Below are positions 17,113 through 34,602 of a stretch of 64,000 nucleotides of DNA, in pieces. Origin of the DNA: Candidatus Sabulitectum sp. (GTDB taxonomy: Bacteria > Fermentibacterota > Fermentibacteria > Fermentibacterales > JCC-6); the NCBI GenBank assembly GCA_023139045.1, contig JAGLOJ010000014.1, positions 22,264-86,263 of the forward strand. The letters run 5' to 3'. A model generated the notes under the pieces. It was not told the DNA's origin. It saw nothing but the letters and a program-made list of their open reading frames with translations, and ran no database searches. The number at the start of each line of letters is the position of its first letter. Position 1 is the stretch's first letter. A program made the position numbers and the translations under genes.

Positions 17113-17573
17113 TTGATATTGTTGATCATAGATCGTGGAAGAATTGACTGGGCTTGAATAACTGTTAATCGGTAACCCTTTCAGGGAACAGCAGTCGCCC
17201 GGGATGCCCCGTGTACGGGTCGGGGCTCAGTGTAGCAGCGCGTTATATCTGCACTTGATACTTGACACTTGACAGGGTTCTGGGTTAAACTCCATTTCGT
17301 CGCGGCGAAACTAAGTACGAATTGTAAAATCTGTTGGGTATATTTTCGGTCAAGTGCTCTTTTTCACACACACCCACACCACAGCCACGACAGTTGTGCC
17401 GCGGTCAGCTGTCACTGACAATAAATATCATGTTATGTATGTGATCTGTGGAATGACATTTGCATAACGTGCTGTTCCATGCCCTGCCTGCCATACATTT
17501 ATAGAATTACCCGCAGTGAATGAAGCGCTCCGACCTGTTTCAGAAGGTGAGTGAACTGTGCAGACCTGCCGTT

Positions 17574-17609
17574 AAAAAGCAAGAGGCCGCCGGAAAACCG
17601 GCGGCCTCT
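17574..17609 (-). terminator. Rho-independent terminator of the TBDR operon
   Basis: Perfect 12-bp stem AGAGGCCGCCGG-AAAA-CCGGCGGCCTCT with an A5 tract at 17574-17578 (U-tract on the minus strand), 20 nt after the stop at 17630. Confidence 0.85.
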
Positions 17610-17629
17610 GCTTCTGAACTTCTGTATCT

Positions 17630-18721
17630 CTACAGAAGCATCGTTTCAATAGCCTGCATGAGCCTGACAGGGAAGTCGGGATCTGAAGCCTTAATATCAA
17701 GACCAAAACCTTCATCCTGACAGATACCAAGAGCAGGTCTGAAGTACTGATTTCTGTAGGCCATGGCTGCTGCCATACCCCTCAGCTTCTGATTATCGAT
17801 TCCTTCATAATGGCTGAATGAATACGCTCCCTCATCGGCAAGACCGAGAAGGGCTGCGACTCCGAGGTAGGGGTCACCATTCTCGCCTTTTGCATCCTGA
17901 AGGATACCGTAGGCCGCTACACCATCGTTGGCAAAAGCAGTATGTCCTGCTGCGCTTTCGAAAGTTGCGTAACCAAAAGACATCTCATTCTCATTCATGC
18001 ACCAGGTTCTGTAACCGTCCTTCCGTACGTAAGGAACGCTCATGTACACAGAACTGGCCGATGTTCCGTTAACAATGGAATCGACACCGCAGTTCGCGAA
18101 TGAAAGTCCATTGGCCACAGTGAACAAGGCCATCACATTGGGATGATCGATCTCGAACTTGTACTGGAACCTGATGTTGGAATACTTTCCATACAACCAG
18201 TCACCAATTTCCTCGTTATCAAGGGTTTCTTTGGGCAGGTCAGGCCCTTGTGTGCCTCCCCAGAAGAGGGTATCACCATCAACGACAAGGATGGTGTCAC
18301 CAAAGGCGTTAATAACCTGAATATCGTTGGCTGTAAGTTCAGGATAAACGCATTCGAACTTAGACCAGTCCTTATTCTGAGGAATTATCACTGCATTGAA
18401 CTCAACTGGCCATGTTCCATTGTCGAGCTGAACTGCCATGAAGTCATACTGATGCCCGATTACCCAGTAATCAGGAAGCAGTATTGAACACCATCCGGCG
18501 CCAACATAGGCATCAGAACGAGAAACATCCATATCGATAGCATTCTTGAAGTTCAACATGGCTGCCTCGTAATCGCCATCCTCAAAAGCATCCCAGCCTG
18601 CATTGACAAACCCCGTGTATCCTTCAACTTCAGGATACTCTGTAACGTTGTCATAGCATCCTGCTACAAGAATGAGGGAGGCAGCAACCACAGCTATTAT
18701 CATTGTGTTGATTTTTTTCAT
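17630..18721 (-). CDS. TPR-containing lipoprotein, function unknown
   Basis: LILVAGC lipobox and a TPR-like segment NAGWDAFEDGDYEAAMLNFKNAIDMDVSRSDAYVGAGW. Last gene of the operon. Confidence 0.75.
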   Translation of the reverse strand: MKKINTMIIAVVAASLILVAGCYDNVTEYPEVEGYTGFVNAGWDAFEDGDYEAAMLNFKNAIDMDVSRSDAYVGAGWCSILLPDYWVIGHQYDFMAVQLDNGTWPVEFNAVIIPQNKDWSKFECVYPELTANDIQVINAFGDTILVVDGDTLFWGGTQGPDLPKETLDNEEIGDWLYGKYSNIRFQYKFEIDHPNVMALFTVANGLSFANCGVDSIVNGTSASSVYMSVPYVRKDGYRTWCMNENEMSFGYATFESAAGHTAFANDGVAAYGILQDAKGENGDPYLGVAALLGLADEGAYSFSHYEGIDNQKLRGMAAAMAYRNQYFRPALGICQDEGFGLDIKASDPDFPVRLMQAIETMLL

Positions 18722-18735
18722 TATTCTTCCCCCCC

Positions 18736-21189
18736 TTACTGTACTTTAAGCATCTTCTGAGTAAGAACCTGACCGGCAGTCTCAAGTCGGCAGAAGTAAA
18801 CTCCTGCACCGACTGGAGAACCTGCTGCATCAGTTCCATCCCAGATGATAGTATGGTTTGCCGCTGCCATCTCTTCGTTGGCAATGGTTGTTACAAGGCG
18901 ACCGGTCATGTCAAAGACATTTACCCTTACATTTCCGCCGACAGGAAGGCCGAAGCTTATTGCTGTCTGTGCGGTGAACGGGTTGGGTGCGTTGCCTCCG
19001 AGCACAAGCTGCGCCGGAATCTCCGGTGAGAAAACACCGAAGCCCTCGCCAAGAGCATAAATTCCGCCCTCTTCAACAGTTGCAAATATCTTCCCATTCT
19101 GCATCCAGCTGTCAAGTTTGACCCAGCCCTCATTTGTGTAACGATACACAGATGCGGCATTGGTGCTGCTGTTAAATGAGAGAGTTCCAGTTACTGCTGG
19201 AATGGCAACGGGACCGACAATAATACCGGTCATCCGACTGCGAATATCAGCAATGGAAAGGCCGGATTCCATGGCAAGACCAAGGGTACTGGTTTCTGCC
19301 AGGGTAATCATACTCCCGCTGGGAGCTCCGCCCTTAGGTACATCGAAGAAAACATTATCGATCTCCAGGCTGACATCGGTGTCGGCAAACCCAACTGCCA
19401 CTTCGCGAATTCCCTGCACGGTATGGCCTGTGCTGTCAAATCCGCTGAAGCTGAGAGTGTAGGTTCCGCTAGCCCAGGCGGGGAATATTCCCGTGAAAAG
19501 GCCACCATAGAAGCTGCTCATCTTGATGTTCTGTGTTGAATCACCAATTTGTGCTTTAAATACGGGGCCTACCCAGTCATATCCCTCGATCTCATCGGTA
19601 TCCGCATCCACCAGAGCCGTATAAACAGTTATGTACTGAGACATAATACCATTCTGGTGAAGAGCGGTCTCTGTTTCCGGGGCAACTTCATCATTGGAGA
19701 TGTAGTACCTCATGCCCATGGCACCGCCGGGGTTGTTGTTTGTCAGAATGATGTAGGTGTTTGGATCGCTCAGCGTGAAAGAAGTGTTGTAAAACTCATC
19801 AAAAACAAATGGTTCCACAGAGATGAACTCACCAGCCGCGTCATCACACTTGATAAGAAGGCCTTCCCAGCGCGAGTTTACAGCACTGTTGGCTCCGGAA
19901 CCATCAGAGTACTGACCATTGATGAATGTTACCCAGTCTTCTGTATAAGTGTTAAAACGGCAGTACTGGCTTGCCCAGACAGGCCCCTTCAATGCACGGG
20001 TCAATGGTGCAATCCATCCTTCAATGGGAAAGGAGTTAAAGGTCTTTGTGAAAGCAGCAGGCATTAATGCATGCGACCAGTTTTCCTGAGTTGTTCCCTC
20101 AAGGAAATCATACATGTAGATGCCCCCGGCATAATCACTGCGGAAGTCATTGTGAAGGTTGCAGACCAACCAGTCGAAGTAAAGCGGAACAACATGGTCA
20201 TTCACTGCTGTTTCTTCATCAGCGGCAGGATCGATTGCAAGAGCAATCGAGAGCATTCCGACATTTTCTGTATCCATGGCAATGGTGGAGATGATGTCAT
20301 CCCCCTCACGCTGTGCAAGATACATAAACCAGAGGAACTGCTGCCCCTTGGATGCTTCATGATCGTACTTGGCATTAGCAGCCTGAGAGTTGATCAACTC
20401 GATATATGCAACATTCGCGAATCCCTTAAGAAGTCCGAAGGCGCCGTGCTCATACACAGATGTATGCGTAAAACCAAAGCATCGGTACTGCATAACCTGA
20501 GAAATTCCACGAATCAGCCAGCGTTCTTCTTCTTTCTGGCTTGAAATCATGATTAGATCTGCCAGACCATTCGCCAGGTTCCACTCTCTCATCTCTACCG
20601 CTGCAGGCATCAAAAACGGCAAGAGGGTATTCGAATGAATGTTTACATAGAACACTTCCATGGCTTCGCCTTCTATCTCGTTGTAAGACAGATCAGCGTA
20701 GTGCATAATGTTCATTGGTACCGTTGATGTTGAACTGGCGCTGTATCTGGTAGGTATCGCAGCGAGAATAACAACGACTTTGCCGTCGCTGTTCAAATCC
20801 TCGGGTACTCCACAGTCTGCAGTTACTGTACCCCATACATTATCTTCGAATGAGGCAGTAAGCGCTGCGAAATCTGCGGGATCCACAAGATTAAGGGTAT
20901 CATTTGATCCCCATACAATCTTGGGTACGAATGTTGTATCCCCATTGCCGCCACTGTTGTCAATACGACTGGTGTCCTGAACCAGCCATACTGCGTGATC
21001 GGTTATGGCGCGACAGGTAAATATGTGTTCTTCCGGCGTTTGAGCGAACTCCTGCAGGTCAGGAACAAGCACGGTTACCTGATCATTTACCTCAATTGCT
21101 GAGGCATTGCCAACACCGAGGAGCGGCATCAGGAGAACAGCGAAGACGGCAAGAAGACCAATCCTCCCTTTTCTCGGCAATCTGTTCAT
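18736..21189 (-). CDS. Secreted protein with degenerate M30-like (gluzincin) domain and C-terminal FlgD-Ig/T9SS type-A-like sorting domain
   Basis: Signal peptide from MNRLPRK (GAGGAGG RBS). The N-terminal region resembles the M30 architecture (CRAITDHAVWLV...DLNSDGKVVVIL). C-terminal NAPNPF...VFDMTGRLV...WDGTD...GAGVYFCRL...QKMLKVQ. Confidence 0.75.
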   Translation of the reverse strand: MNRLPRKGRIGLLAVFAVLLMPLLGVGNASAIEVNDQVTVLVPDLQEFAQTPEEHIFTCRAITDHAVWLVQDTSRIDNSGGNGDTTFVPKIVWGSNDTLNLVDPADFAALTASFEDNVWGTVTADCGVPEDLNSDGKVVVILAAIPTRYSASSTSTVPMNIMHYADLSYNEIEGEAMEVFYVNIHSNTLLPFLMPAAVEMREWNLANGLADLIMISSQKEEERWLIRGISQVMQYRCFGFTHTSVYEHGAFGLLKGFANVAYIELINSQAANAKYDHEASKGQQFLWFMYLAQREGDDIISTIAMDTENVGMLSIALAIDPAADEETAVNDHVVPLYFDWLVCNLHNDFRSDYAGGIYMYDFLEGTTQENWSHALMPAAFTKTFNSFPIEGWIAPLTRALKGPVWASQYCRFNTYTEDWVTFINGQYSDGSGANSAVNSRWEGLLIKCDDAAGEFISVEPFVFDEFYNTSFTLSDPNTYIILTNNNPGGAMGMRYYISNDEVAPETETALHQNGIMSQYITVYTALVDADTDEIEGYDWVGPVFKAQIGDSTQNIKMSSFYGGLFTGIFPAWASGTYTLSFSGFDSTGHTVQGIREVAVGFADTDVSLEIDNVFFDVPKGGAPSGSMITLAETSTLGLAMESGLSIADIRSRMTGIIVGPVAIPAVTGTLSFNSSTNAASVYRYTNEGWVKLDSWMQNGKIFATVEEGGIYALGEGFGVFSPEIPAQLVLGGNAPNPFTAQTAISFGLPVGGNVRVNVFDMTGRLVTTIANEEMAAANHTIIWDGTDAAGSPVGAGVYFCRLETAGQVLTQKMLKVQ

Positions 21190-21289
21190 TTGAACCTCCT
21201 CGTAACTAGGTTTCTTTGTTACTTCGTATCTATTTTCTGCACCTGATTCTATGAATCGGTGCGCTTTATACATTTTTCGGCAGTACACA

Positions 21290-22615
21290 CTAAAACTCAT
21301 CATCGCCTCCGGAACTTCCGCCGCTGCGATTGACATTTTGTAACATGCTCTGCCAGTTTGAATAGCTGACTTCACCCTCTACTGTGGAATATATCTGGAG
21401 ATAATCTCCATTACCCATCAGATCAGCAAAAACAAAGCCCTCCTGCTCGGAACTGTAGTAGGTCCAGAGCTCGTAAGGTGCCTGAGTTGTACTGAAAGGA
21501 TCTGATTCCACCTCGTCGGGTTCACCGAAAATCAGGTACACCCTTCCCCTGTCAGTTTCCCATCCCTCTTTTCCCAGGGCTGAGAATCTTGCGGCCACGA
21601 CTCTGCTTCTTTCCAGATATCCGTTGTGCTCCCCTGGATTGGCATTCCAGTAGTTGTTGTAGTAAAGTGCCTTTCCGTCCTCGTCTAACCTGTTGAACAG
21701 TTCTGCTTCCTCCCGGTTCAGAAGAAGGGGGAATTCGATCAAACATCCGGTAGAGAAAATCTCCGGGGTTTGAACGGATTCAACAACTGGAAGAAAAACT
21801 TCCACAACCAGAGGTTTAAATACTGAACCTAAGGTATCCCCATTCTGAGTGTAGGTGACAGAAAGGGTGTAAAGCCCCGGTTCTCTCACCACGGAAAGAT
21901 CGATACTGTCAATCAAAGCAATCGTTTCCATTCCATCCGGAATGGAAATAACGTCTGCAGGTCTGGCGAAGATTGGCAGCCCTTCAGGATTCAGCAGTTT
22001 GCTGTACCTTAGAATATCAGTTCCCCCGAGGGAGTAGATCTCCTGGTAGGTATACAGCATGCTTTCACCCGGTACGGCAAACCTGGTTGATGCAGCTGGA
22101 AACACAATAATGCTTCCCTTCAAAAGCGAGTTAACCGAACCCTCAACTGCCGGCATGATAGTTCTGGCAATCTCAACATCACTTAGATGTTCAGGATGCT
22201 CAACAGAAAGTTCCCTGACAGCAACCCCCTGACGGCCATTGCCTGCATCTGTCATGCTTACAGTTAGTATCCAGTCACCCTCAAGTACAGGCAGCAGTGT
22301 GCAGTTTACCGCACGGCCACTTTCACTCCACGCAAGTGGAGTATTCCAAATGTCAGCCGCTACAGTATCACCCGGTACAGAGCAGAGAGATATCTCTGTA
22401 GTGAAGAGACACATTCCATCTGAACCCCGGGAAAACTGTGCGATATCCACTTCCTGATACACTTCAAGAAGAAGAGTATCTCCAGCCCCGGCTCTGATGC
22501 TGAAAACGGCTGTGTCAATGGCAAAATCAATATTGCCACGACTCACTGTTGCCAGCCCGAGGGCCGCCGCTGTAAATGCCAGTACCAGAAGAAGAGCAGT
22601 GGTGCTTCTAGTCAT
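21290..22615 (-). CDS. GWxTD domain-containing exported protein
   Basis: Signal peptide; C-terminal GWETDRGRVYLIFGEPDE...YELWTY...FVFAD. Confidence 0.88.
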   Translation of the reverse strand: MTRSTTALLLVLAFTAAALGLATVSRGNIDFAIDTAVFSIRAGAGDTLLLEVYQEVDIAQFSRGSDGMCLFTTEISLCSVPGDTVAADIWNTPLAWSESGRAVNCTLLPVLEGDWILTVSMTDAGNGRQGVAVRELSVEHPEHLSDVEIARTIMPAVEGSVNSLLKGSIIVFPAASTRFAVPGESMLYTYQEIYSLGGTDILRYSKLLNPEGLPIFARPADVISIPDGMETIALIDSIDLSVVREPGLYTLSVTYTQNGDTLGSVFKPLVVEVFLPVVESVQTPEIFSTGCLIEFPLLLNREEAELFNRLDEDGKALYYNNYWNANPGEHNGYLERSRVVAARFSALGKEGWETDRGRVYLIFGEPDEVESDPFSTTQAPYELWTYYSSEQEGFVFADLMGNGDYLQIYSTVEGEVSYSNWQSMLQNVNRSGGSSGGDDEF

Positions 22616-23777
22616 GTGACCATCCCTCTCTTGCGTTGAATGCTCTATCCACAATATTCCAGCCCTCGACCATTTCGTAATATCCGTATCCGTCCTGATC
22701 TACGAAAGTGACCGCAAGGGAAGGAGTAAAATACTGCCAGGTAATGTAGGGGTAGTAACCAATCTCAAACGGGAAATTCTCTACAATGTCCGGTTCTCCC
22801 ATTTTTGCATAAACTACGCCCCTGTCGGTGTTTATTCCACGTATTCCAGTGGTACTGAAATCTCTTGAGATCCTGTCAAGTCTGAGCAGGTATGCATCAA
22901 GGTATTCATTCTCTCTGGTTGCCGGGTTGGGATCCCGCCGGGCCCAGAAATCTGACATTACAGAATTTCTGTCTCCAAGACCTCCGGCTCGTTCAAGCTC
23001 TCTCATTTCATGGGTTGAAGCAATTGGTCTGATAAGAGTTTTCGTCTCATCAACATCATCACCCCACATATCCCAGGATTCGAGAACCAGAATTGAACTG
23101 GACGAGGAGGCAACAACACTGTCGCCTTGAAGAGCAGCCACAGTAAACCTGTATCTGCCTTTTTCAAGGCCATTGAGAGAAACATCTGCAGAGTAGGAAA
23201 TTACTCTATCTTCCCTGGCCTCACTTGTCAGCCAACCCTCCCGAACAACATCCGTTGATCTGTCAAGAAGGGCATAGGCTACGGGTGGTACATATTCTTC
23301 TTCCTCATTTTCCGGTATGTAAACATTCCAGAAGAGGCTGACACAACCGGAAGCCCTCACACAGCCGTCGGGAGAAATCCTGACGCCTCCGCTTGACCAG
23401 AGAGTACCATTTGCAGCATCGATAAATATCTCGACTTCACTGCTGAGGATTGCTCCCGATTCAAGGTCTGTGAGGGTAACGGATACAATATGTCCACCTG
23501 TTTCAAGTAAGTCGTAAGCAAGTACTTCACTAATCGGGAAAGAAGCATCTGTGATCCTGCTGCCTTTGCGAAGAAAACCTTCGCCGTCGATAGTGGCTGT
23601 TATCTCATAAGAGACAAGTGAACCACCGGCAACTGTGCTTACTGCGATAAGATCCTCCTCGTTTATCAGAACCGTTACCTCTGCTGATCCGGTATCTGTG
23701 GACCTGGAGGGGTAAGAACTCCAACTGAGACTGAAACTTGTCAACGCAAGCATTGTAAGGGCTGCAGCAAGTGTCAT
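22608..23777 (-). CDS. GWxTD domain-containing exported protein (GINTD variant)
   Basis: FWARRDPNPATRENEY...GINTDRGVVYAKMGEPD...WQY...FVD. Overlaps the next gene by 8 nt. Confidence 0.85.
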   Translation of the reverse strand: MTLAAALTMLALTSFSLSWSSYPSRSTDTGSAEVTVLINEEDLIAVSTVAGGSLVSYEITATIDGEGFLRKGSRITDASFPISEVLAYDLLETGGHIVSVTLTDLESGAILSSEVEIFIDAANGTLWSSGGVRISPDGCVRASGCVSLFWNVYIPENEEEEYVPPVAYALLDRSTDVVREGWLTSEAREDRVISYSADVSLNGLEKGRYRFTVAALQGDSVVASSSSSILVLESWDMWGDDVDETKTLIRPIASTHEMRELERAGGLGDRNSVMSDFWARRDPNPATRENEYLDAYLLRLDRISRDFSTTGIRGINTDRGVVYAKMGEPDIVENFPFEIGYYPYITWQYFTPSLAVTFVDQDGYGYYEMVEGWNIVDRAFNAREGWSHD

Positions 23778-23797
23778 TCAAGCCTTTCCGAGAGTCG

Positions 23798-23815
23798 GGA
23801 AGGGAAAACCCTTCC
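23798..23815. other. Intra-operon hairpin between the PorV-like gene and the GWxTD genes
   Basis: GGAAGGG-AAAA-CCCTTCC perfect 7-bp stem in the 57-nt spacer, with no strong U-tract. Confidence 0.5.
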
Positions 23816-23834
23816 GGTTTATCCAGCTATCCTG

Positions 23835-24812
23835 CTAGAATGAAAATCCAAGACTGGCACGGTGAACCATTTCCAGTCTGTTGAAATCCTGATACGCGTA
23901 ATCAAGAGTCAGAGCCTTGTCTCCCATAGGTACACGGAAACCGGCACCTGCGCTGAGACCCTCTTCATCTGTGTTCACACGATAGCCGCCCCTGAGGGCG
24001 ATCATGTTGTTGTACCAGTACTCCGCACCAATGTTAACCTGCTCAACATTGTCGGCAGGATGTACACCATCCACCTCCACGATGACCTGATGAGGACCCT
24101 GATCAACCACATCCATGGCAAGACCGATTCTGAAGTTCATGGGCATGGCATAAGGATCGTAGGTGTCAGTGGAATCTGATCCACTGTACCAGTTCTGACC
24201 CTCGCCGCCGGGGGTAAGCTCCGGTCCGAAGTTCTGAATTGACATTCCGATACGAAGTGTCTTGAAACCTGTGTCATAAAGTGTACCAATATCGACGGCA
24301 ATGCCACCTGCTGATACATCATCCCAGGCCTCACGGACATACTTTGCAGTCAGCCCCGCACTGAATCTGTCGGTAAGCATCCTTGCAAAAGAAAGACCAA
24401 CAACCATGTCTGAGCATGTGAAGGTTTCTGTTCCATTGGGATCCTCAACCGTGGTCCGGTATATGTCGCCGCTTGAAAGCAGACCGAACTGCAGGGCGAT
24501 AGTACCGATACCAGTCAATTCGTGCGTAACAATGCCACTGCCGTAAAGCATGTCGGCGTAGAGCTGTGTACCCGAGAACTGGAACTGTGTTCCGGGAACC
24601 CTTACGAGAGCACCTGGATTCCAGTAAGCAGCACTGGGATCATCAGCTGTAGCGACAAAGGCACCGCCCATAGCCACTCCACGGCATCCAACGCCGATTT
24701 TAAGGAACTGGGCACCTGACGTTCCTGTTTTTGCAAAGGAAGCCTCCGCAAGAGCAGGGAACAGCAGGAAGGCAACCAGTGCGGTTGCAAGTATCATGCT
24801 TGTTCGCTTCAT
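23835..24812 (-). CDS. PorV/PorQ (UPF0164)-like outer-membrane beta-barrel
   Basis: GTSGAQFLKIGVGCRGVAMGGAFVATADDPSAAYWNPG N-terminal motif, alternating beta strands and a C-terminal LGFSF. GGAGG RBS precedes the ATG at 24812. Confidence 0.88.
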   Translation of the reverse strand: MKRTSMILATALVAFLLFPALAEASFAKTGTSGAQFLKIGVGCRGVAMGGAFVATADDPSAAYWNPGALVRVPGTQFQFSGTQLYADMLYGSGIVTHELTGIGTIALQFGLLSSGDIYRTTVEDPNGTETFTCSDMVVGLSFARMLTDRFSAGLTAKYVREAWDDVSAGGIAVDIGTLYDTGFKTLRIGMSIQNFGPELTPGGEGQNWYSGSDSTDTYDPYAMPMNFRIGLAMDVVDQGPHQVIVEVDGVHPADNVEQVNIGAEYWYNNMIALRGGYRVNTDEEGLSAGAGFRVPMGDKALTLDYAYQDFNRLEMVHRASLGFSF

Positions 24813-24825
24813 GGTTTCCTCCCTT

Positions 24826-27093
24826 CTACTTGATGATTGCGAACTTATCAATCACAAAGTCGTCTGCGGTCTCTACTCTGTAAACGTAGAGGCCAGTTAC
24901 TATATCCTGATCATTTCTGGAGACAAGATCCCAGTATTCTGTACCAACCTCACCAGTATAATCACGATGCTCAAGAGATATTACATGATCTCCCGCAAGT
25001 GTAAATATGTGAATATCACACATGGATGGAAGATTAACGAATGCAATTTTGTTAAAGTAGGTTGTTTCCCAGGCTGCACTCATCTTGTAGGGATTGGGAA
25101 CTACTCTCACATTCTCGGTCCAGTTGGCATCAGTACCCCAGTTCGGAGTAACAGCAACGGGAACTCCCTCTAAAGACTGCTTGTAATTGCTTTTGGTGCT
25201 TTCAACAAGAGTTTCGGCATCATAGGCAGTAACAACATAGTAGTAAGGGAAACCGTTACGGGCTGTGTTATCCGTGTACTCGTGAACACCGGCCTCAGTT
25301 ATCGTAGCGATGACTTCGAAGTTGCCGGGCTCAAAGGTAGAACGATATACCTTGTATCCACCGAACGGGGAATATGCTTCTGCATTGGCGCCCCACTCAA
25401 GATGAACAGCGTTGTTCTGACCTTCGTAGAAAAGAACTGGCGTAGGAGGAAGATCGGGCACTCCCCAGTCGCCATCAAGGTAGTAGGCACTGAGAAGCTC
25501 ATCTGCCGCCTCTCTTGCACCTTCAAGGCCGAGACCAATAAGCCAGCCACCTATAACGAACAGGCTGTCGCCGTCGTCAAGGGTCACCGGGCCCATGTTG
25601 GGAAGGAACCTGTAATCGAATACAGGATACGTGAGGGCAAAAGGGTTGTCGTAAACAAACGGCCACGGACCGGGATTTGGTGCGACTCTCGCTTCCGGTG
25701 TATTGGGGTTTCCAACCCAGTTTTCCATGTAGGCCGGTCCACTGTGCTGACCACTCTGGTCAGGGAAAACACCCCACATGTAGTCATAAACCTGAAGATC
25801 ACTTCCAGGATCACTTTCCCAGTTCCACCAGGCATGACTTAGTGGAATAGCAACGTCATAAACATCACAAGGACGCTCAACATCACCGTTGGCTTTCACT
25901 ACCCAGAGGTCAAGCAAACGCCAGCCGATAAAACCGTTACAGGGTACATCAATGTGCTGATCACCGCTGTCATCACTTGTGCTTCCTGTTGCATCACTGT
26001 CCCACATGTAGCTCATGTTTCGAGGAACAACGGCGTAGGTTGTGTCTCCTACTACATGCTGCCAGAAATTCTCCGGGCGGTTACCCTCTGTAAACATATC
26101 CATACCGGTTCCGCTGTTGACAGGATAGATATAGGTTGAAGGGTCATTAAAATTAGTTGTCTTGAAAAGTATGGTGTAATGGTCGGAAACACCGTCACCA
26201 TTGACATCATTATCCATGAAACTGTCAGATCCGATGTAGTTGTAGTAGTACCAGATGTTGTCGGGATCGTCTTTTTCCAGCGGGCTGTCAGGATTCTGCT
26301 GGTAAACATAGATGTTCTGCTCACTGGCAATAGTTTCATCGTCGAAAACATACTCGAAGTCTGGTGCTGTTGTAACATCACCGCTGTTAAGCCAGATGGC
26401 ATGTCCATCATAGTAGACCATATCATCCAGGTGCGTTTCTACAGGGTTTGCGGTGGCAATATCACAGTCACCGCGAATGCCCAGAACCAGGCCGTCAAGA
26501 GGCTTACCGCTGCCATACTGGCTGTGGTGTGTTACAGCAAACTTGTTTGCGATAAAGTTGTTGTAACCGGGTGTTCCCCAACTGTAGTTTTCCTCCCAGA
26601 CCTGCATTCCGTACGGATTCTCGTTTCTGGAGGCATACCAGTCATCATAACCGTACTGAGTCTGCTCAAGAGCAGTGGGGCCCGGAACAAGTTTTTCCAT
26701 GGGGAAACCCTCGCTCGTCCAGAGCTCGTAGCCAGAGCTGGCGTTTGCGTTGGCGCAGCTTGCCCATTTACCGAGACTGTCTTGGAATGAGCTGGTAATT
26801 TTACCGGCGCACGAGCTGAAAAGAGTACCCTGCCAGAGGTAGTAACTTCCCGACCCGGCGGGCCACTCCATTGAAGGGTATTCTGCTTTGCTGTCACCGA
26901 ACACGCCGATGTTCAGAAATGTACACCAGACATTACTCAGGTTGTGCAGTCCCATGACCACGGCAGGCCTGTCATCTGTGCCTTCCGGCAATGGAACTTG
27001 TCTAAGATTTCTTGCGAGGCCGGTACCTGCAAACACAAAGAGTGCAAGCACGACGAGTGCAAGGAGTCCGCGACTTCGCCTCGTATTCCTCAT
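24826..27093 (-). CDS. Secreted FN3-domain protein with T9SS-CTD-like C-terminus
   Basis: Signal peptide from MRNTRR (GGAGG RBS). SMEWPAGSGSYYLWQG motif, FN3 (LEWG...GYKVYRS...YYYVVTAYD) and C-terminal VRVVPNPY...IFTLAGD...WDL...GLYVYRV...KFAIIK. Confidence 0.8.
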   Translation of the reverse strand: MRNTRRSRGLLALVVLALFVFAGTGLARNLRQVPLPEGTDDRPAVVMGLHNLSNVWCTFLNIGVFGDSKAEYPSMEWPAGSGSYYLWQGTLFSSCAGKITSSFQDSLGKWASCANANASSGYELWTSEGFPMEKLVPGPTALEQTQYGYDDWYASRNENPYGMQVWEENYSWGTPGYNNFIANKFAVTHHSQYGSGKPLDGLVLGIRGDCDIATANPVETHLDDMVYYDGHAIWLNSGDVTTAPDFEYVFDDETIASEQNIYVYQQNPDSPLEKDDPDNIWYYYNYIGSDSFMDNDVNGDGVSDHYTILFKTTNFNDPSTYIYPVNSGTGMDMFTEGNRPENFWQHVVGDTTYAVVPRNMSYMWDSDATGSTSDDSGDQHIDVPCNGFIGWRLLDLWVVKANGDVERPCDVYDVAIPLSHAWWNWESDPGSDLQVYDYMWGVFPDQSGQHSGPAYMENWVGNPNTPEARVAPNPGPWPFVYDNPFALTYPVFDYRFLPNMGPVTLDDGDSLFVIGGWLIGLGLEGAREAADELLSAYYLDGDWGVPDLPPTPVLFYEGQNNAVHLEWGANAEAYSPFGGYKVYRSTFEPGNFEVIATITEAGVHEYTDNTARNGFPYYYVVTAYDAETLVESTKSNYKQSLEGVPVAVTPNWGTDANWTENVRVVPNPYKMSAAWETTYFNKIAFVNLPSMCDIHIFTLAGDHVISLEHRDYTGEVGTEYWDLVSRNDQDIVTGLYVYRVETADDFVIDKFAIIK

Positions 27094-27184
27094 ACTCACT
27101 ATCACCTCCTGTCTTTCTCCAAACGTGCCTTTCATTGCAGTTCGGATCCTACTTGTGTTGTGTGTCATACCCATATGCCACACC

Positions 27185-27853
27185 CTAATTAGATAACTCA
27201 AAGTTGTAACCCAGTGAGGTCCATACGGCAACAGGTACATTGTTGTTGCGTGCAGGCGACCAGCGCGTATTCCACGCGGCCGACATGGCAGCCTGATCGA
27301 GACTGCTGACTCCACTTGAGTTGTAAAGCTGAACATCAGCCACAGTGCCGTCAGCTTTAACAAAGATCCAGAGTGTAACCAAACCCTCTACGCCGGCCTG
27401 GCTGGCAAGATCAGGGTAGTTTGCGGCTGGCCTGTAGGTGCAAACCGGGAAAACTTCTGCGGCCATAAACCGCGGTGGCCCCATTTCCCCGGACTGCCCC
27501 ATATCGCCAAGCTCATCACTCTGGTCAATGGTTAAAGCTTCTTCAAGCCCTTCTGTGTCGTCGCTGAGCGACAGCGTAATGTCAAGCTCTTCAATTATTT
27601 CTTCCGTTTCATCCTGCAATTCTTCCTGCTCTTCTTCAACTTCTTCTTCCTGTTCTTCAACATCGTCGTCGAAGGCAATGTCAGCCTCAACGGCTTCCAT
27701 CTGCGAATCTGAAGTTCGAGTAGACAGCCTGCCCAGTTCACTGGCAGGAATAAACTCGAAGAAGATGATCAGAAACGCAAGAGCCACAACAATTCCCCAC
27801 TCAAAGCCAAGTGCGGACTGTTTTCTGCTCTCTATATCAGCGCTTGTAGACAT
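27185..27853 (-). CDS. tonB: Energy transducer TonB
   Basis: N-terminal TM, Glu-rich (rather than Pro-rich) linker and TonB-C domain YPDLASQAGVEGLV...LDQAAM...WSPA. Confidence 0.88.
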   Translation of the reverse strand: MSTSADIESRKQSALGFEWGIVVALAFLIIFFEFIPASELGRLSTRTSDSQMEAVEADIAFDDDVEEQEEEVEEEQEELQDETEEIIEELDITLSLSDDTEGLEEALTIDQSDELGDMGQSGEMGPPRFMAAEVFPVCTYRPAANYPDLASQAGVEGLVTLWIFVKADGTVADVQLYNSSGVSSLDQAAMSAAWNTRWSPARNNNVPVAVWTSLGYNFELSN

Positions 27854-27864
27854 CTCACCTCCCC

Positions 27865-28329
27865 CTATATTCCTGTGCTCAATTCCTGAGCGTTAAACTG
27901 AATGCTGTACAACTCCTCGTAACGAAGATCCGCAAAAAGACCGACCATAGCACTCATAGGGACACGAGTGTCTGCATTGAGTACTATGACATCAAGGTGC
28001 TTGTTCTGCTCACGCCAGAATTTGTCAGCAAGACCTTTCAGTTGAACTGCAACCTGATCTACAGGCAGGTCGTAGTCGCCGATTCTTGCTATAACTTCAC
28101 TCTGGCTGTCACCGGGGTTCATCTGTTTGATCCAGACGGCCACGATGAGATTCTCCTTCCCGAGCTCGCTCATTACCTGAGGGTGAGCCTGGGGAAAGCG
28201 AATTCTGAGACCGGTGTCATCCTTGAAAATGGTTGTAGCCATGAAGAAGACAAGAAGCAGGAAAACGATATCCGACATTGTGCTGGATCCTATCGCACTG
28301 CCCACCTTCATTCGTCTTTTAAATTTCAT
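27865..28329 (-). CDS. exbD: Biopolymer transporter ExbD
   Basis: SSTMSDIVFLLLVFFMATT transmembrane segment with the conserved Asp, and LNAD..VP. Confidence 0.88.
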   Translation of the reverse strand: MKFKRRMKVGSAIGSSTMSDIVFLLLVFFMATTIFKDDTGLRIRFPQAHPQVMSELGKENLIVAVWIKQMNPGDSQSEVIARIGDYDLPVDQVAVQLKGLADKFWREQNKHLDVIVLNADTRVPMSAMVGLFADLRYEELYSIQFNAQELSTGI

Positions 28330-29072
28330 TGCACACCACCTAGTCTTTCCTGTATTGTGATACCGGTACGGCTGACACCGTTGCGCCTGAGAACATCAAG
28401 TGCACTGATCATGCCGTCATAATCACAATCGGGGAAAAACTTGAGAATAACAACAAGCTCACTCTCTCTTACGGCTGAAGCAATATCACCCTGTCTGGCG
28501 TCAGCAAGCACCAGAGTATCGCCAAAAGCCACTTCTCCGAAGTTTGGATCGATGACAGTGGGAGCATCTCCGCCCATGACTTCCCGGATCAGTCCGGAAC
28601 GCACTATGGCTGTAAGATTCTCTGCCTGAATCGCCGAACTCAAATTGGAATAAGTACCGGATCGTACACCCTTGGCAACTTCCAGATTGTTCAACAGTCT
28701 GGAAGATGTCGCTTCCACTGTTTCTGCTCTCTGAGATGCAAGAGTCATTATTCCAGCCTGAAGAATCGGGTCATCAAGGGCTACATCTTCACCGGCTCTG
28801 GCCCTCTGCAGCGGCCCGTCGGGGGGCGCCTGGTCTATAAGAGCTACATAGCTTCCCAGACCCCACTGCTTGATGGTCATAACAAGCCGGTTTGTTTCAT
28901 CGATCACTACCTCTTCAGTCTGTTCATCGGGTTTTTTAGGCAGCTGATAGCTGATACCCTTCTGAACATCAAAAGTGGTTGTCACCAGGAAGAAGATCAG
29001 CAGCAGGAATGCAATATCGGACATTGACGAATCGGAAAACTCGCCGGTGGCCCGTGGTCTTTCATTGCGCAT
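28326..29072 (-). CDS. exbD: ExbD/TolR family protein with large periplasmic insertion
   Basis: SSMSDIAFLLLIFFLVTT and C-terminal VILK..PDCDYDGMISALDVL. At 248 aa it is about 95 aa longer than the adjacent paralog. Confidence 0.8.
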   Translation of the reverse strand: MRNERPRATGEFSDSSMSDIAFLLLIFFLVTTTFDVQKGISYQLPKKPDEQTEEVVIDETNRLVMTIKQWGLGSYVALIDQAPPDGPLQRARAGEDVALDDPILQAGIMTLASQRAETVEATSSRLLNNLEVAKGVRSGTYSNLSSAIQAENLTAIVRSGLIREVMGGDAPTVIDPNFGEVAFGDTLVLADARQGDIASAVRESELVVILKFFPDCDYDGMISALDVLRRNGVSRTGITIQERLGGVQ

Positions 29073-29084
29073 TCTTGCTCCTTA

Positions 29085-29921
29085 TCACAACTGCTTGAGA
29101 TGTTCCATGTCGGCAAGCTGATCGACGAGGAACATGCTTGCCTCTTCCATGTCGGTAATAAAACGGCCCACTTTCGCGATGAAATAGTTATTGGCCATCT
29201 GAATGGGAATAGCAACACAAAGACCGGAGGCCGTTGTGATAAGCGCTTCCTGAATACCACCTGCGACAAGGCTGGCATCAACATTCTTGGCTGCGGCAAT
29301 CTCACCGAAGGCACGAATCATACCTGAAACTGTACCAAGGAAACCAATCATAGGGGCAACACTTGAAACGGTGGCAAGAACAACAAGCCCCTTCTCAAGA
29401 TGAGCCATCTCTATGGATCCGGCACCCTCGATCGCTTTTTCTACGTCAACAAGCCCCTTGTCTCTTCTCGTGAGCCCGGATCTGAGAATTGCAGACACAG
29501 GACCGCATGTACGATCACAGAGGTTCTCAGCACCACTGAGGTCGCCCTTGCGAATGTATCCGCCAAGTTGCTCGAGAAACTTGTTTACATCGAGTTTGGC
29601 CTTACTGAAGACGATAAATCTCTCTACAGTTACGGCAACACCGATGATAAGAGCAAGAAGCAGCGGCCACATGAAGTTTCCACCGGCGATGAAAAGATCC
29701 TTCAGATCCATACTCGCACTCTGTGAACGCTCAACTTCTTCCGCGACAGGTGTTTCAGCAACATCTGCCTCATCTGTATCCACAACAGGTTCCTCTACAG
29801 AAGCAACATCTTCAACTGTTTCGGTCACCTCTTCTGTGGTTTCTATTACTTCCGGCTCTTCATTCTGAGCCATGGCGAAAGGTGCCATGACCAGTAGAAG
29901 CACCAGCAGGATTTTATACAT
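29085..29921 (-). CDS. exbB: MotA/TolQ/ExbB proton channel protein
   Basis: GGNFMWPL, APMIGFLGTVSGMIRAF and VAGGIQEALITTASGL motifs, with an N-terminal signal peptide and acidic extension. Confidence 0.92.
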   Translation of the reverse strand: MYKILLVLLLVMAPFAMAQNEEPEVIETTEEVTETVEDVASVEEPVVDTDEADVAETPVAEEVERSQSASMDLKDLFIAGGNFMWPLLLALIIGVAVTVERFIVFSKAKLDVNKFLEQLGGYIRKGDLSGAENLCDRTCGPVSAILRSGLTRRDKGLVDVEKAIEGAGSIEMAHLEKGLVVLATVSSVAPMIGFLGTVSGMIRAFGEIAAAKNVDASLVAGGIQEALITTASGLCVAIPIQMANNYFIAKVGRFITDMEEASMFLVDQLADMEHLKQL

Positions 29922-29965
29922 CTGGTAACTCTCCTTGTTCTTGCGGGAAAACCCGCCTGAATTTC

Positions 29966-32731
29966 CTACCATTCGAAATCTAAACCGAAACGTATCTGTC
30001 TTCTACGGGAATAAGCATTCGGGTTGCCCATTTTACCTGTGGGGTCATGATCAGGTTCGCCGTCTCCATCCATGTCGGCATCGTACCATGATTCGTCCAT
30101 GAGGTGACTGATGTTTACACGGTTGAACAGATTAATCACCCAGACATAAGCATTCACGGATGTATCACCCATCCAGAACGTCTTGTTCAGCTTGGCTGTG
30201 GTGTTCATTGTGAAAGGCAACCGCTCGCTGTTGATCTGAGGATCAGCCGTGCCCTGGCTGCTGGCATTGTAGGGGAAACCACTTCCGTAGTTCCACTGCA
30301 GTGCAAGCCCTAAACCCTGAAGGTAACGAGTACCGCCCCATGCAGGGCCTTCGTTACGGGGGATGATGAAATTAAAGTTGACGTTAACCATGTGTCTCTG
30401 ATCCCATTCAAGGAAACTTTCGCGCTTGGGAATAATCCAGTTGGCCCAGGCATAATCGTAATTCTGCCTTTCGCTGGAACTCTTACCCTTGGCAATAGCG
30501 TAGGTGTAGTTTGTGGTGAAGCTTATGAAGTTTGAGGGACGTCTCATAAGGGTAAACTCTGCACCTCGAACATTACCGTAATCACCATTGACATACAGAT
30601 CATATGCGTCTACAGGGGTGTAGTTGTTCTTCTGCATGTCAATAAGACCTGTGATGTCTTTGTAATAACCGGTGACATCAAGCATGGTCAAATCGTCAAA
30701 CATGTGCTTCACGCCAACTTCGTAGGCGATGGTCTCTTCAGGCTCGAGATCGGGGTTTCCCACCATGGGGAAGGCACCTGAAAGATCAAAGTTCGCACCA
30801 TCGAACATGTTTGCGAAGTCTGGCACCTGGAAATAGTGACCGTATGTGAAGTGAAGAACATCACGCTCGGTAATGGGATGGCTGAAGCCGAGTCGGGGAC
30901 TGAGGTGATACTTGGCACTGACACTTACAGGGTTCTTGATGTAACCCGGGTCACTTACTGATGATCCCTGATTAATCGGATCTGTAAGGTCGGCGGGATA
31001 GTTATCGAAATTCGGGTCAAAGTAGTCGAAGCGAAGACCCGCATTAACGATCATTCCTCTGTACTCCATCTTATCCTGCAGATAAGCCGATACAGCATGA
31101 GGATAAGAGTGCCATTCACCCATGTAGATGTTACCGCCGGAGGCGGTGTCTACACTGTACTCGTAAATGTCGTAGTACTTGCCCTCAACACCGAATTTGA
31201 GCTGGTGCTGCTGGTTCACCTGACTTGTAACATCAAGTCTGGCTGTGGAAGTTGCGCTTCTGGTGTCAAGCCAGGCAGCCCTGTCAAGTCCGGAGCGGTA
31301 GAATCCGTCACCGTCCTGGACGCGCTCAGGCGTGTAGGTGAGCCAGTCATCTCTGGTAAAGTTTTCACCAAGATAACTTCCATCTTCCTGGTTGATTCTG
31401 CGCTCGTAATCAGCTACATACTGATTGATCTTGAATTCCAGGAAGCTTGCATCACTGAGAGTCTGAGTGAGGCTGAAGCCCATGGAATAGTTATTCCTTG
31501 TGCCTGTTGGAAGGCCGTATTCGAAATTGGATCCGGGTATTGTATCACCCGTAAGCGGGTTAACAAATGGATCCTCATATCTCGCGTAAACCCAGCCGCG
31601 GTAAATTCGCGCTACCCGATTCCTGTAAAATCCGCTGAAGTTCAGCTTGGTTCTCGGGTTAGGCTTGATTGTGAGTTTCAAGTTACCGTTCCACTGCTCG
31701 CTGCCAGTGTTCAGAAGGTAAGCGTAGTTACCGTCTGGGCCGCCACCGTTCTGCAGCCATTTGACTGAACCGAAAAAACGCACATCGGCGTTCACATCAA
31801 GACCCATTGCAGGAAGAAGGTACTGGGTAATGGGTTCGGGGCCGCCAAGGGCGGCTTCGGCTGTGAGTCTGGCTTCTGCAAAAGGAGCAGGCTTGTTCAG
31901 CCCGAATTCCTGAAGGATCTGCCCTTCTTCACCGTCGAACTTGGAACCGGCCCACCATGAGCCGGGGTAGCCCCAGGTCCAGTCCTTGGAAAGACCAAGG
32001 GCATCAAAGTCATTACCGTTCATGCCGATGGAACCGGTGTAACGGTTTCCACCTTCACGGGTAACAACGTTGATGATTCCAGACTGGGCATTTCCGTATT
32101 CAGCACCGAAACCACCGGAGATAATCGATGTTTCAGTAACTGCTGAAAGGGGAATTGTCCGATCAGCCACATTGCCGATGGGGTTGGTCTGGCTGATGCC
32201 GTCAACAAGATAGGCAACCTCGCCACCGCGGCCACCGCGCATGTGAAGACCATCCTTATCGACAGCACCTGCCTGCTGGTTCACCACATCGGTGATACCG
32301 GCTACCGGCATGGTTCTGATCTCGTCACGGGTTACAACAGAAACACTCGAGGTGACTCCGCGAAGAATCATACCCCTCTGGTCGGTAACGGTGATAACCG
32401 TACTTCCGACTGCTTCCGGATTAAGAATAAAGTCCATACGGGTGGTCATGTCAACTATGACACTGGCACCCTCTTTGGTCTGCTCTCCCATTCCAACCAT
32501 GCTTGACCGGAGGTTATAAGTTCCCGGTTGCAGGTTGATAATGAAGTACTCACCGTTTGGATCGGTCATTGCACCGAAGGTAGTACCAACGATCATTACA
32601 GTCGCACCGATTAACGGATTTCCGTCTGAATCGGTAACGCGACCGGCGATCTTGCCGGTAGTTCCTGCAGTTGCACTAAGGGACACAAACAGCAGTAGAG
32701 CAAGCGAAATTACTGTCGCTCTCCTAAACAC
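29966..32731 (-). CDS. TonB-dependent receptor with N-terminal carboxypeptidase-regulatory-like domain
   Basis: GTTGKIAGRVTD..G.PLIGATV, plug HMRGGRGGEVAYLVDG...GGFGAEYGNAQSGIINVVT, barrel SPRLGFSHPI and GNPDLEPE..IAYEVG, C-terminal RQIRFGLDFEW. Confidence 0.93.
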   Translation of the reverse strand: MFRRATVISLALLLFVSLSATAGTTGKIAGRVTDSDGNPLIGATVMIVGTTFGAMTDPNGEYFIINLQPGTYNLRSSMVGMGEQTKEGASVIVDMTTRMDFILNPEAVGSTVITVTDQRGMILRGVTSSVSVVTRDEIRTMPVAGITDVVNQQAGAVDKDGLHMRGGRGGEVAYLVDGISQTNPIGNVADRTIPLSAVTETSIISGGFGAEYGNAQSGIINVVTREGGNRYTGSIGMNGNDFDALGLSKDWTWGYPGSWWAGSKFDGEEGQILQEFGLNKPAPFAEARLTAEAALGGPEPITQYLLPAMGLDVNADVRFFGSVKWLQNGGGPDGNYAYLLNTGSEQWNGNLKLTIKPNPRTKLNFSGFYRNRVARIYRGWVYARYEDPFVNPLTGDTIPGSNFEYGLPTGTRNNYSMGFSLTQTLSDASFLEFKINQYVADYERRINQEDGSYLGENFTRDDWLTYTPERVQDGDGFYRSGLDRAAWLDTRSATSTARLDVTSQVNQQHQLKFGVEGKYYDIYEYSVDTASGGNIYMGEWHSYPHAVSAYLQDKMEYRGMIVNAGLRFDYFDPNFDNYPADLTDPINQGSSVSDPGYIKNPVSVSAKYHLSPRLGFSHPITERDVLHFTYGHYFQVPDFANMFDGANFDLSGAFPMVGNPDLEPEETIAYEVGVKHMFDDLTMLDVTGYYKDITGLIDMQKNNYTPVDAYDLYVNGDYGNVRGAEFTLMRRPSNFISFTTNYTYAIAKGKSSSERQNYDYAWANWIIPKRESFLEWDQRHMVNVNFNFIIPRNEGPAWGGTRYLQGLGLALQWNYGSGFPYNASSQGTADPQINSERLPFTMNTTAKLNKTFWMGDTSVNAYVWVINLFNRVNISHLMDESWYDADMDGDGEPDHDPTGKMGNPNAYSRRRQIRFGLDFEW

Positions 32732-32915
32732 TTTGCAGCTCCTTTCTTCTTGCTACAAACTGTGCACAAACCCGAAGCCCCGACGTACACCCCGGAAGGC
32801 ACCGGATCCGCACAAACAAACAAACATCACCACGGCCAGCCGTGGCCACCTAACACTCTGCAGCACACCGATTTACAGCGTACTAACCTATTGTCACACA
32901 ACTCTTTCCTGCTCT

Positions 32916-32944
32916 AGGATACATAAGCCTCAGAACCGTGTCAA
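32916..32944 (-). promoter_or_regulatory. Sigma70-type promoter of the TBDR operon
   Basis: Minus strand reads TTGACA-17 nt-TATCCT, implying a 5' leader of about 180 nt before the GTG at 32731. Confidence 0.65.
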
Positions 32945-33176
32945 GAAGAGGCTGTACACCTCGCTGGAACAACAGCACAAGAATCGGGTATAAGTGGTTC
33001 TGCACAGCATAAGTACCTGCAAATCTTCTGACTGGCAGAGAATGCCGGTAATCCTATTTTTTAGAAGTCACCGTTTCTGACTGCAGGGCTGAGTTTCCCC
33101 GCCTTTGTTCCACAGGGTCGTATAAAATTTCATGAATGATTGATTGAACTGCATGTGCATACGAACCGCTGCTGCC

Positions 33177-34244: not shown

Positions 34245-34271
34245 ATCATACCTCCATGTAAATAGTTCAAA

Positions 34272-34436: not shown

Positions 34437-34602
34437 AGTGCCTTCATGAAAAGCTGTTTGCTTTTCAGTTATAACTGCAAACAAGTCTACTACACAGTCA
34501 GATTGCTGGAATAAGTACCTTTTCAGCCGCTTTGTCGCAGCCTTCGAAAACTGATTGAATCAAGTGATGGCTGACAGTATTCTCACTGCGCGACAAGAAC
34601 AC

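Follow-up and report, generated by a model that had tools for sequence, protein, structure and literature searches.

A TonB-dependent transporter, a supersandwich protein and a PorV/PorQ-family barrel form a widespread gene cassette that may build a SusD-independent uptake complex in Fermentibacterales

We asked why a TonB-dependent transporter (TBDT), a TonB motor and relatives of type IX secretion system (T9SS) parts are encoded side by side in Candidatus Sabulitectum sp. The genes in question lie at 17630-32731, all on the minus strand, in a 64-kb stretch of DNA (hereafter the window) from an assembly of 205 contigs that is 93.5% complete. The original prediction had seen in these 11 genes a possible uptake complex that does without SusD and in which a PorV-like barrel tethers surface proteins carrying a T9SS-type C-terminal domain (CTD). 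We found that three of the genes, for the TBDT, a protein named here CTD1 and a dedicated outer-membrane barrel, make up a cassette that is the core of the operon and is widespread in bacteria of the Fibrobacteres-Chlorobi-Bacteroidetes (FCB) group. We give an even chance to the view that the products of this cassette form a SusD-independent uptake complex, in which the surface captor CTD1 is held beside the TBDT by its own PorQ-like barrel.

Is the trio found together in other lineages? Loci were collected in two ways. A scan with a degenerate pattern for GWxTD proteins, two of which are encoded in the operon, gave 591 stretches with relatives, and 78 loci were returned and annotated with profiles of the Fermentibacterales orthologues and by clustering, the cluster representatives being searched against Pfam. 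The names among them were Acidobacteriota, Ignavibacteria, Zixibacteria, Eisenbacteria, Kryptonia, Gemmatimonadales, KSB1, WOR-3, Calditrichia and others. A complete run of TBDT, CTD1-like protein (1000-1190 aa), PorV-like barrel and GWxTD protein was seen in four loci (L106, L116, L154, L159); it was cut at the contig start in two (L114, L107) and had looser spacing in three (L111, L092, L065); these nine loci are named Ignavibacteria, Eisenbacteria, 'Bacteroidetes' or plain 'bacterium'. On a single strand, L092 carries GWxTD-ExbB-ExbD-ExbD-TonB-Yip1-TolC-HlyD-MacB-MacB-GWxTD-NlpC/P60-DUF1611-epimerase-TBDT-CTD1-PorV-like, and therefore clusters the same gene families in a different order. 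The second survey was seeded with CTD1 and covered 121 genomes of a neighbouring phylum, a sample independent of GWxTD. A profile of CTD1 relatives matched in 68/121 genomes at E <= 1e-20 and in 40/121 at E <= 1e-100, with 1 to 4 full-length copies per genome among the matches listed. When adjacency was counted in the 30 best CTD1 loci, one per genome, a TBDT gene lay directly upstream of CTD1 on the same strand in all of them (30/30), and a PorV-like barrel gene directly downstream in 27/30, the three misses (L171, L186, L188) being contig ends. The start of a GWxTD gene was visible past the barrel gene in 6/30 loci, where a flank of 1.5 kb was examined. Moreover, the 20-kb neighbourhoods of seven cassettes contained two-component regulators in five cases, two with Reg_prop/Y_Y_Y sensor kinases, which are the sensor type of the regulators of polysaccharide utilization loci (PULs) in Bacteroides. 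The frequency of TBDT genes near GWxTD genes (25/74 loci; 17/74 within three genes) was rejected as evidence in its own right, as it has no baseline. Two variants of the cassette were seen in passing. At G145:C1:660984-676096 (L200), TBDT-CTD1-PorV-GWxTD is followed by three more tandem genes of the CTD1 family, and in two unrelated genomes (L206:12294-14663 and L065:9048-11402) the cassette barrel is followed by a PIG-L deacetylase-domain protein of ~785 aa.

The transporter of the operon (29966-32731, 921 aa) is a TBDT by its domains. Pfam found an N-terminal CarboxypepD_reg extension (PF13620, 7.9e-18), a Plug domain (3.4e-9; 37.6 bits, cut-off 23.9) and the receptor β-barrel (PF00593, 7.2e-27; 95.7 bits, cut-off 27). 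The protein has a signal peptide and an aromatic C-terminal residue, and the motif STVITVTDQ past the extension resembles a TonB box when judged by eye, with no model. It is not a SusC by model, since it scored 44.4 bits against the TIGR04056 cut-off of 368.25, through its N-terminal part alone. The Oar-like barrel model PF25183 was not listed for it at E <= 0.01; this model matched the cassette TBDTs of L092 and L111 weakly. Four contiguous genes for the energiser follow: ExbB (29085-29972, 295 aa), which overlaps the TBDT gene by 7 nt, a long ExbD paralogue (28326-29072, 248 aa), ExbD (27865-28329, 154 aa) and TonB (27185-27853, 222 aa). They matched MotA_ExbB (2.2e-31), ExbD, ExbD (1.1e-13, full length) and TonB_C (4.6e-16) with 108.7, 47.9, 51.8 and 59.5 bits, all above the cut-offs, and TonB also reached 50.4 bits with TIGR01352 (cut-off 27.1). 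For the 248-aa ExbD the Pfam match is partial: it covers the N-terminal residues 11-56, a long middle stretch is unmatched by Pfam and the C-terminal end looks ExbD-like by eye; the protein is kept in every complete relative locus. Elsewhere the genome encodes one close TonB paralogue (contig C90); in total it has six Plug-domain transporters and ExbD genes at four places, so it encodes several such motors, that of the operon among them. The closest paralogue of the TBDT (872 aa, 643 bits) is followed, at C36:3799-10664, by four open reading frames (ORFs) of similar size, ~340-350 aa, three of which share near-identical C-terminal ends; no CTD1 or PorV-like gene is present there, and the four ORFs may encode transporter partners of another kind. 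According to published descriptions, Fermentibacteria ferment sugars and amino acids, and a Sabulitectum species has an 'active' tonB/exbBD system (PMC5763382, PMC5030696); the supplement of PMC5763382 does not contain the terms TonB and ExbB.

What kind of protein is CTD1 (24826-27093, ~755 aa)? Searches of Pfam and NCBIfam gave no match for it, tail included, even at E <= 10, and fold comparison was more informative. Behind the signal peptide, residues 42-550 are modelled as a β-supersandwich that aligns with the N-domains of GH15, GH65, GH94 and GH116 enzymes and with galactose mutarotase (Z 17.3 to 12, 195 to 266 residues aligned), as well as with YidC P1; the best matches were 9ju0 (Z 17.3, root-mean-square deviation (rmsd) 3.4, 246 aa), 7w2t (Z 16.2) and 1ulv (Z 15.8). 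In the model a fibronectin type III (FN3) domain follows the supersandwich, and the protein ends in a divergent sandwich (residues 657-756) that resembles the tail of PorZ (5m11: Z 11.8, rmsd 2.6, 87 residues, 20% identity); the profile of the CTD1 family also matched the tail of PorU (6za2, E 3.7e-4). Foldseek matched only the region made up of the FN3 domain and the tail, and the matches in the Atlas were unnamed 'fibronectin type-III' clusters. The CTD label that this protein had been given is thus backed by profile (PorU) and by fold (PorZ), the hidden Markov models being silent. A search of 1.84 billion cluster representatives with a profile of the CTD1 alignment gave 43407 matches at E <= 1e-3; with the threshold set at E <= 1e-30, 4184 of the 50%-identity clusters were matched. 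By our own reading, ~140 of the best 150 matches are full-length relatives aligned in one stretch, most of them 1000-1300 aa long. No Pfam core domain was found in the 30 family members examined, 10 of which matched FlgD_ig and 3 Por_Secre_tail.

The third protein of the cassette (23835-24812, 325 aa), a barrel of the 14-strand type and the proposed anchor of CTD1, belongs to the PorV/PorQ family (NF033709, 224 bits, cut-off 90). It is none of the named members by model: the best equivalog match was PorQ (NF033711) with 98.3 bits against a cut-off of 220, followed by PorV proper (NF033710; 86.4 bits, cut-off 250) and PorV2 (64 bits, cut-off 325). The genome contains five PorV-family paralogues above the NF033709 cut-off. 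The one on C3, beside a PorU-like gene, scored best as PorV (170) and is likely the true PorV of the genome; those on C58 and C72 scored best as PorQ (155) and PorV2 (147), respectively. In a quick tree, the 30 cassette barrels (support 99) and the barrels of Fermentibacterales and L092 (94) formed separate clades, with canonical PorV standing apart; the tree has long branches and leaves the relation of both clades to the PorQ-like and PorV2-like paralogues unsettled. We then modelled the complex of the barrel (residues 24-325) with the CTD1 tail (residues 655-756), each with its own alignment, alongside three controls. An interface was predicted with a score of 0.93, while the best of the three controls scored 0.00; at least 90% of the contacts agreed between runs and the pLDDT (predicted local distance difference test) of the partners was at least 84. 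The model thus suggests that the CTD1 tail docks on the neighbouring barrel, in line with the PorV-CTD pairing of the original prediction. Another pair in the same genome looks like a cargo-plus-barrel pair: at C79:9971-15357, a 657-aa protein matching the PorV-family model, with an OmpA-like motif at its end (seen by eye, no model), comes directly after a 1142-aa protein with a CTD-like end.

Around this core, all 11 genes could be confirmed as co-directional ORFs on the minus strand. Their spacers, in gene order, are -7, 12, -4, 11, 91, 13, 57, -8, 100 and 14 nt. The starts that are likely the true ones lie downstream of the longest ORF starts for CTD1 (27093), the PorV-like barrel (24812 vs 24851) and CTD2 (21189 vs 21375). 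An intrinsic terminator on the minus strand (17582-17609; a 12-pair stem with 10 G-C pairs, a 4-nt loop and a T-rich tail) begins 21 nt past the last stop codon and ranks first among the terminator-like sites in 16500-34500; the same scan found no such site within the intergenic gaps of the operon. A sigma-70-like promoter match (32916-32944, minus strand; TTGACA, 17 nt, TATCCT; 10/12 positions) lies 185 nt upstream of the TBDT gene. It carries little weight because such sites are not above chance frequency (17 found vs 20.2 +/- 5.6 expected from shuffles), so that of the two proposed limits of the unit the terminator is real and strong and the promoter weak. Judged from spacing and orientation, the 11 genes probably form one operon. 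Most of the proposed gene labels were confirmed as well; those that stand on remote or partial matches are the CTD of the 24826-27093 protein, the pseudo-peptidase and the tetratricopeptide repeat (TPR).

The gene order is conserved among relatives, as the original prediction would have it. The close homologues of the GWxTD proteins and CTD2 are named Candidatus Sabulitectum, Fermentibacteraceae and Fermentibacteria, and 33 of 34 order-level relatives had a GWxTD match, mostly as tandem pairs. From those 33 we took 16 loci of 20 kb, picked for long contigs (drawn from the window's genus, with six genomes, from four more genera in its family and from a second family, again with six genomes), together with two distant genomes. 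The full 11-gene order was present in 14 of the 16 Fermentibacterales loci; the remaining pair, L073 and L075, is colinear up to the contig ends that cut it short. The convergent downstream neighbours, genes for a PD40 protein and for a member of the 5-enolpyruvylshikimate-3-phosphate synthase family, recur in both families; the upstream neighbour was found in none of the loci from outside the window's genus. Further upstream in the window, two plus-strand ORFs for an AAA_14 ATPase (34654-35085) and a DUF4143 protein (35295-35801) both match one 382-aa ORF of a relative (L071:18650-19798), and this gene is probably split or frameshifted in the window assembly.

The remaining genes of the operon encode two GWxTD proteins, a second CTD protein and a lipoprotein. 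GW1 (22608-23777, 389 aa) and GW2 (21290-22615, longest ORF to 22654, 441 aa) matched TIGR04514 with 72.7 and 58.4 bits (cut-off 28) and are the sole two GWxTD proteins encoded in the genome; the motif of GW1 reads GINTD. The AlphaFold2 model of GW2 (pLDDT 90.5) consists of a signal helix, two immunoglobulin (Ig)-like sandwiches (residues 27-139 and 142-274) and a GWxTD domain of helices plus a sheet (residues 295-425). Residues 27-274 gave generic matches to Ig-like sandwiches only (Foldseek, VIA-align), and the second sandwich resembles the O-antigen-binding domain of Wzt (Z 11.0), tied with the generic Ig-like matches. The GWxTD domain 295-425 had no match when the profile was compared with the sequences of the PDB, and it was barely covered by the fold searches. 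The GWxTD proteins are likely secreted accessory proteins of the periplasm or the outer membrane. One homologue (P0043) is fused to a BlaR1/M56 sensor domain.

CTD2 (18736-21189, 817 aa) has a T9SS type A tail (TIGR04183, 39.2 bits, cut-off 23), and the tail of its family matched PF18962 in 31/31 members at E <= 1. Its N-terminal domain had been called a pseudo-peptidase. The family profile matched the M30 metalloprotease lugdulysin (7bb8/7bb9; E 5e-7, 31 bits, profile positions 83-324), and the LAHEYQH stretch of lugdulysin aligns with L-A-D-L-I-M-I in CTD2, so that HExxH is replaced by D, L and I, in a stretch of low alignment confidence; the downstream Glu position of the M30 site is substituted as well. 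No Pfam model, M30 and other peptidases included, matched the N-terminal domain in any of the 31 family members at E <= 1, and its Atlas scores were <= 0.80. The label of an inactivated M30-like domain is thus supported by a remote profile match and not by Pfam. The idea that CTD2 could be a sortase like PorU was rejected, as NF033707 matches the tail alone. CTD2 is a likely second binder. The product of the last gene (17630-18721, 363 aa) is a lipoprotein by its lipobox (LVAGC), and it had no match in Pfam or NCBIfam even at E <= 10. The TPR claimed for it was found by TPR_1 in 10/14 orthologues, not in the window copy, and as one short TPR-like region: profile positions 30-72 match consensus TPR proteins, and the rest, roughly 290 aa, gave no matches. 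No homologues of CTD2 or the lipoprotein were found outside Fermentibacteria-like sequences in the searches run. At one locus of the window's genus (L072, G002:C15, 1693-5195) the CTD2 and lipoprotein genes are each split in two ORFs, possibly by frameshifts or assembly errors.

GWxTD genes outside the cassette keep other company. In Acidobacteriota-named loci (L123, L132, L134, L136, L137, L145 and others) they lie directly downstream of TatA and TatC, in Zixibacteria-named and other loci after TolC-HlyD-ABC-MacB-MacB genes, and in Ignavibacteria-named loci before genes for a lipid A acyltransferase and a GT9 heptosyltransferase. Over the 78 loci the recurrent neighbours were TatC (16), TatA (12), ABC (ATP-binding cassette) ATPase (17), HlyD (10), MacB/FtsX (7), TolC-like OEP (7), lipid A acyltransferase (9) and GT9 heptosyltransferase (7). 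At L064 (G036:C5, 11539-18341), in a distant genome, a GWxTD gene is followed by a 120-aa ORF, a TPR protein and a PorU-like C25 peptidase with a propeptide and a T9SS tail, which again connects GWxTD with T9SS components.

Next, we asked what the rest of the genome offers to such a locus. No SusD (PF07980) was found in the whole genome, with Bacteroides thetaiotaomicron matching as the positive control, and no SusC above the TIGR04056 cut-off; the absence of SusD, proposed from the window, thus holds genome-wide. A T9SS translocon is present: SprA is encoded at C187:42881-48505 in one frame of 1879 aa (418.8 bits, cut-off 200), PorU-like genes lie on C129, C139 and C3, the C3 copy directly before the PorV-like gene, and about 50 proteins carry a standard CTD. 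The motor proteins GldM and GldL (TIGR03517, TIGR03513) gave no match in this genome, the GldL model being without a positive control, and the best GldK match reached 75.7 bits (cut-off 350); the models may fail to detect GldLM that have diverged. The 13 further genomes with a cassette or GWxTD locus gave the same picture (GldM 0/13, SprA 13/13), and no Fermentibacterales genome searched had a GldM match. The GldM model itself works in the 121-genome sample, where it matched 30 genomes, SprA being found in 96 and GWxTD in 75; 66 of the 96 SprA-positive genomes had no GldM match. GWxTD occurred in 66/66 SprA-positive genomes without GldM, in 0/25 without SprA and in 9/30 with GldM, and strong CTD1-family matches in 37 genomes without and 3 with GldM, counts that are not independent because they follow deep, class-level lineages.

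How could the products of the operon work together? Building on the observed gene content, synteny and copy number and on the computed folds and tail-barrel interface, we infer the following course. CTD1 would reach the cell surface, presumably via the SprA translocon; its tail would be retained and bound to the neighbouring barrel, as PorZ is on PorQ. Placed over the TBDT or at its side, CTD1 would then capture the substrate or act as a lid, the role that SusD and the surface glycan-binding lipoproteins have in Bacteroidia, and the private ExbB-ExbD-ExbD-TonB motor would pull the plug so that the substrate, probably an oligosaccharide and possibly a peptide, could enter. The motor, the two GWxTD proteins, CTD2 and the lipoprotein would be additions of Fermentibacterales to the core. 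We favour an uptake complex because the triad is multicopy and flanked by regulators, the CTD1 scaffold is of a type found in carbohydrate enzymes and its tail is PorZ/PorU-like.

Several observations weigh against this proposal. CTD1 is tied to the TBDT by the adjacency of their genes alone. The AlphaFold2 model of CTD1 is weak (pLDDT 63), and the supersandwich as modelled would be a scaffold, which is no proof of sugar binding. Neither TIGR04183 nor PF18962 matched the CTD1 tail, and the profile of the CTD2 family, the tail of which detected the other 50 CTD proteins of the genome, missed it too, so that export of CTD1 through SprA is an assumption. The mark of the complex score, which in calibration was reached by 58/80 solved complexes and 2/110 mismatched pairs, holds only approximately here because own alignments were used. 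Complexes of PorV-family barrels with CTDs have already been solved, and because of this the pass of the complex may reflect likeness to these structures and not binding. The quick tree cannot decide on orthology between the window barrel and those of the 30 cassettes. Finally, typical PULs encode carbohydrate-active enzymes (CAZymes), whereas the Pfam scan found no CAZyme domain and no active peptidase among the 11 operon proteins, which agrees with the statement of the original prediction that no CAZyme is recognisable; neither was found among the 46 neighbour proteins around the seven cassettes. Nevertheless, the uptake complex with a tethered captor fits best with the triad, its copies, the regulators, the fold and the tail model taken together, the contact of CTD1 with the TBDT being putative.

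The same gene set could serve export or assembly instead, with the TBDT and the TonB motor moving or mounting CTD1 or other CTD cargo outward, or substituting for the energy of GldLM. We regard this as unlikely, even if the genome has SprA, PorU-like genes and the ~50 CTD proteins without a GldM or GldL match, even if the 13 further carriers likewise have SprA and no GldM match, and even if every one of the 66 sample genomes with SprA and without GldM has GWxTD. The precedent of Oar and PopC for TBDT-dependent export (PMC6434023), a further point against uptake, and the GWxTD gene of G036, which has a PorU-like C25 peptidase gene two genes away, fit with export too. However, a multicopy cassette beside two-component sensors of the substrate type is the pattern of a nutrient locus and not of a core secretion motor, and the TBDT has an ordinary Plug and a TonB-box-like motif. 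The GldM/GWxTD pattern tracks class-level lineages and could arise from kinship alone, GldLM may be present in a divergent form that evades the models, and GWxTD is also frequent among Acidobacteriota loci, a group that the T9SS searches did not cover. The more specific idea that the TonB motor, the TBDT, the PorV-family barrel and the GWxTD proteins together constitute a TonB-driven type IX secretion or surface-assembly system of GldLM-less lineages seems to us very doubtful. SprA-bearing genomes without a GldLM match keep export alive as an alternative.

It is also conceivable, if improbable, that the TonB/TBDT import unit is unrelated to the T9SS surface proteins and the GWxTD envelope proteins, having only the operon or neighbourhood in common with them, and that no joint complex exists. 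CTD1 and CTD2 follow spacers of 91 and 100 nt, the ExbBD-TonB, CTD2 and lipoprotein genes usually do not adjoin the cassette outside Fermentibacterales, and GWxTD occurs in many other gene contexts. Yet the gaps are free of terminator-like sites, L092 clusters the same families anew, the 11-gene order is fixed in both sampled families of the order and the TBDT, CTD1 and barrel genes are adjacent and co-directional across diverse genomes in 30/30 and 27/30 loci. A role in envelope maintenance, in which the module would handle lipopolysaccharide (LPS), lipoprotein or glycan, with the GWxTD proteins at its centre and the TBDT as a recycling or sensing channel, appears quite unlikely to us. The genes next to GWxTD for Tat, MacB-type ABC transport (with HlyD and TolC) and LPS (lipid A and heptosyltransferase) point to envelope biogenesis over nutrient uptake, and in this they too count against an uptake complex; the BlaR1/M56 fusion of P0043 and the Wzt-like sandwich of GW2, for all its tie with generic matches, go in the same direction. 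However, these neighbour families vary by phylum, are common housekeeping genes and have no baseline for chance adjacency, and envelope maintenance leaves the invariant triad and its multiple copies unexplained.

If the cassette does form a SusD-independent uptake complex, which known systems does it resemble? As in SusC/SusD (RagA/RagB), a TBDT with a CarboxypepD_reg-type extension is encoded beside a large, putatively surface-exposed partner, in paralogous copies per genome and with sensor regulators nearby, including Reg_prop/Y_Y_Y. Unlike SusC/SusD, the TBDT scores below the cut-off of the SusC model, SusD was not found in the genome and no CAZymes were seen nearby; and CTD1 is, unlike SusD, a signal-peptide protein with a CTD-like tail and its own barrel, and not a lipoprotein. 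In the PorQ-PorZ and PorV-PorU pairs, a PorV/PorQ-family barrel holds a surface protein, probably via the C-terminal sandwich of that protein. PorZ and PorU are reported to be anchored at the surface by PorQ and PorV (PMC7463736). The cassette shares with them the family of the barrel, a CTD1 tail that is nearest to the PorZ and PorU tails, and the modelled binding; it differs in that its barrel falls below the equivalog cut-offs, CTD1 is neither a sortase nor PorZ, and the pair is linked to a TBDT and multicopy. The TBDT Oar of Myxococcus xanthus also carries a CarboxypepD_reg extension, and we know of no PorV-family barrel for it. Oar is reported to be needed for the secretion of PopC (PMC6434023), and both there and here a large TBDT is linked with a secreted protein, although the window TBDT did not match PF25183 at E <= 0.01. 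With SprF/PorP-like proteins and their type B CTD cargo (SprB), the cassette shares an arrangement in which a cargo gene precedes the one for its dedicated outer-membrane partner; here, the barrel is of the PorV/PorQ family, the tail is of another type and a TBDT lies upstream. A putative parallel is BamG-BamH of the Bacteroidota BAM (β-barrel assembly machinery) complex, where a FadL-like 14-strand barrel is described as anchoring an extracellular protein via its loops (PMC12578637); BamG is part of the BAM complex and not of a TBDT cassette. Thus the parts are of known kinds, and their fixed combination as a widespread cassette and as an 11-gene operon appears undescribed: we found no description of either in the literature searched, with subscription journals outside the search.

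In Bacteroidia, SusC/SusD pairs explain how polymers are captured and imported. To our knowledge, the corresponding processes in uncultured FCB relatives, such as the lineages named Ignavibacteria, Eisenbacteria and Fermentibacteria, are largely unknown. The cassette may serve many uncultured bacteria as SusC/SusD pairs serve gut Bacteroides. If this is true, it would be a second, T9SS-dependent way of building the lid of a transporter, it would mark nutrient loci in SusD-less genomes, and it would provide the first context for two families without an assigned function, CTD1 and GWxTD.

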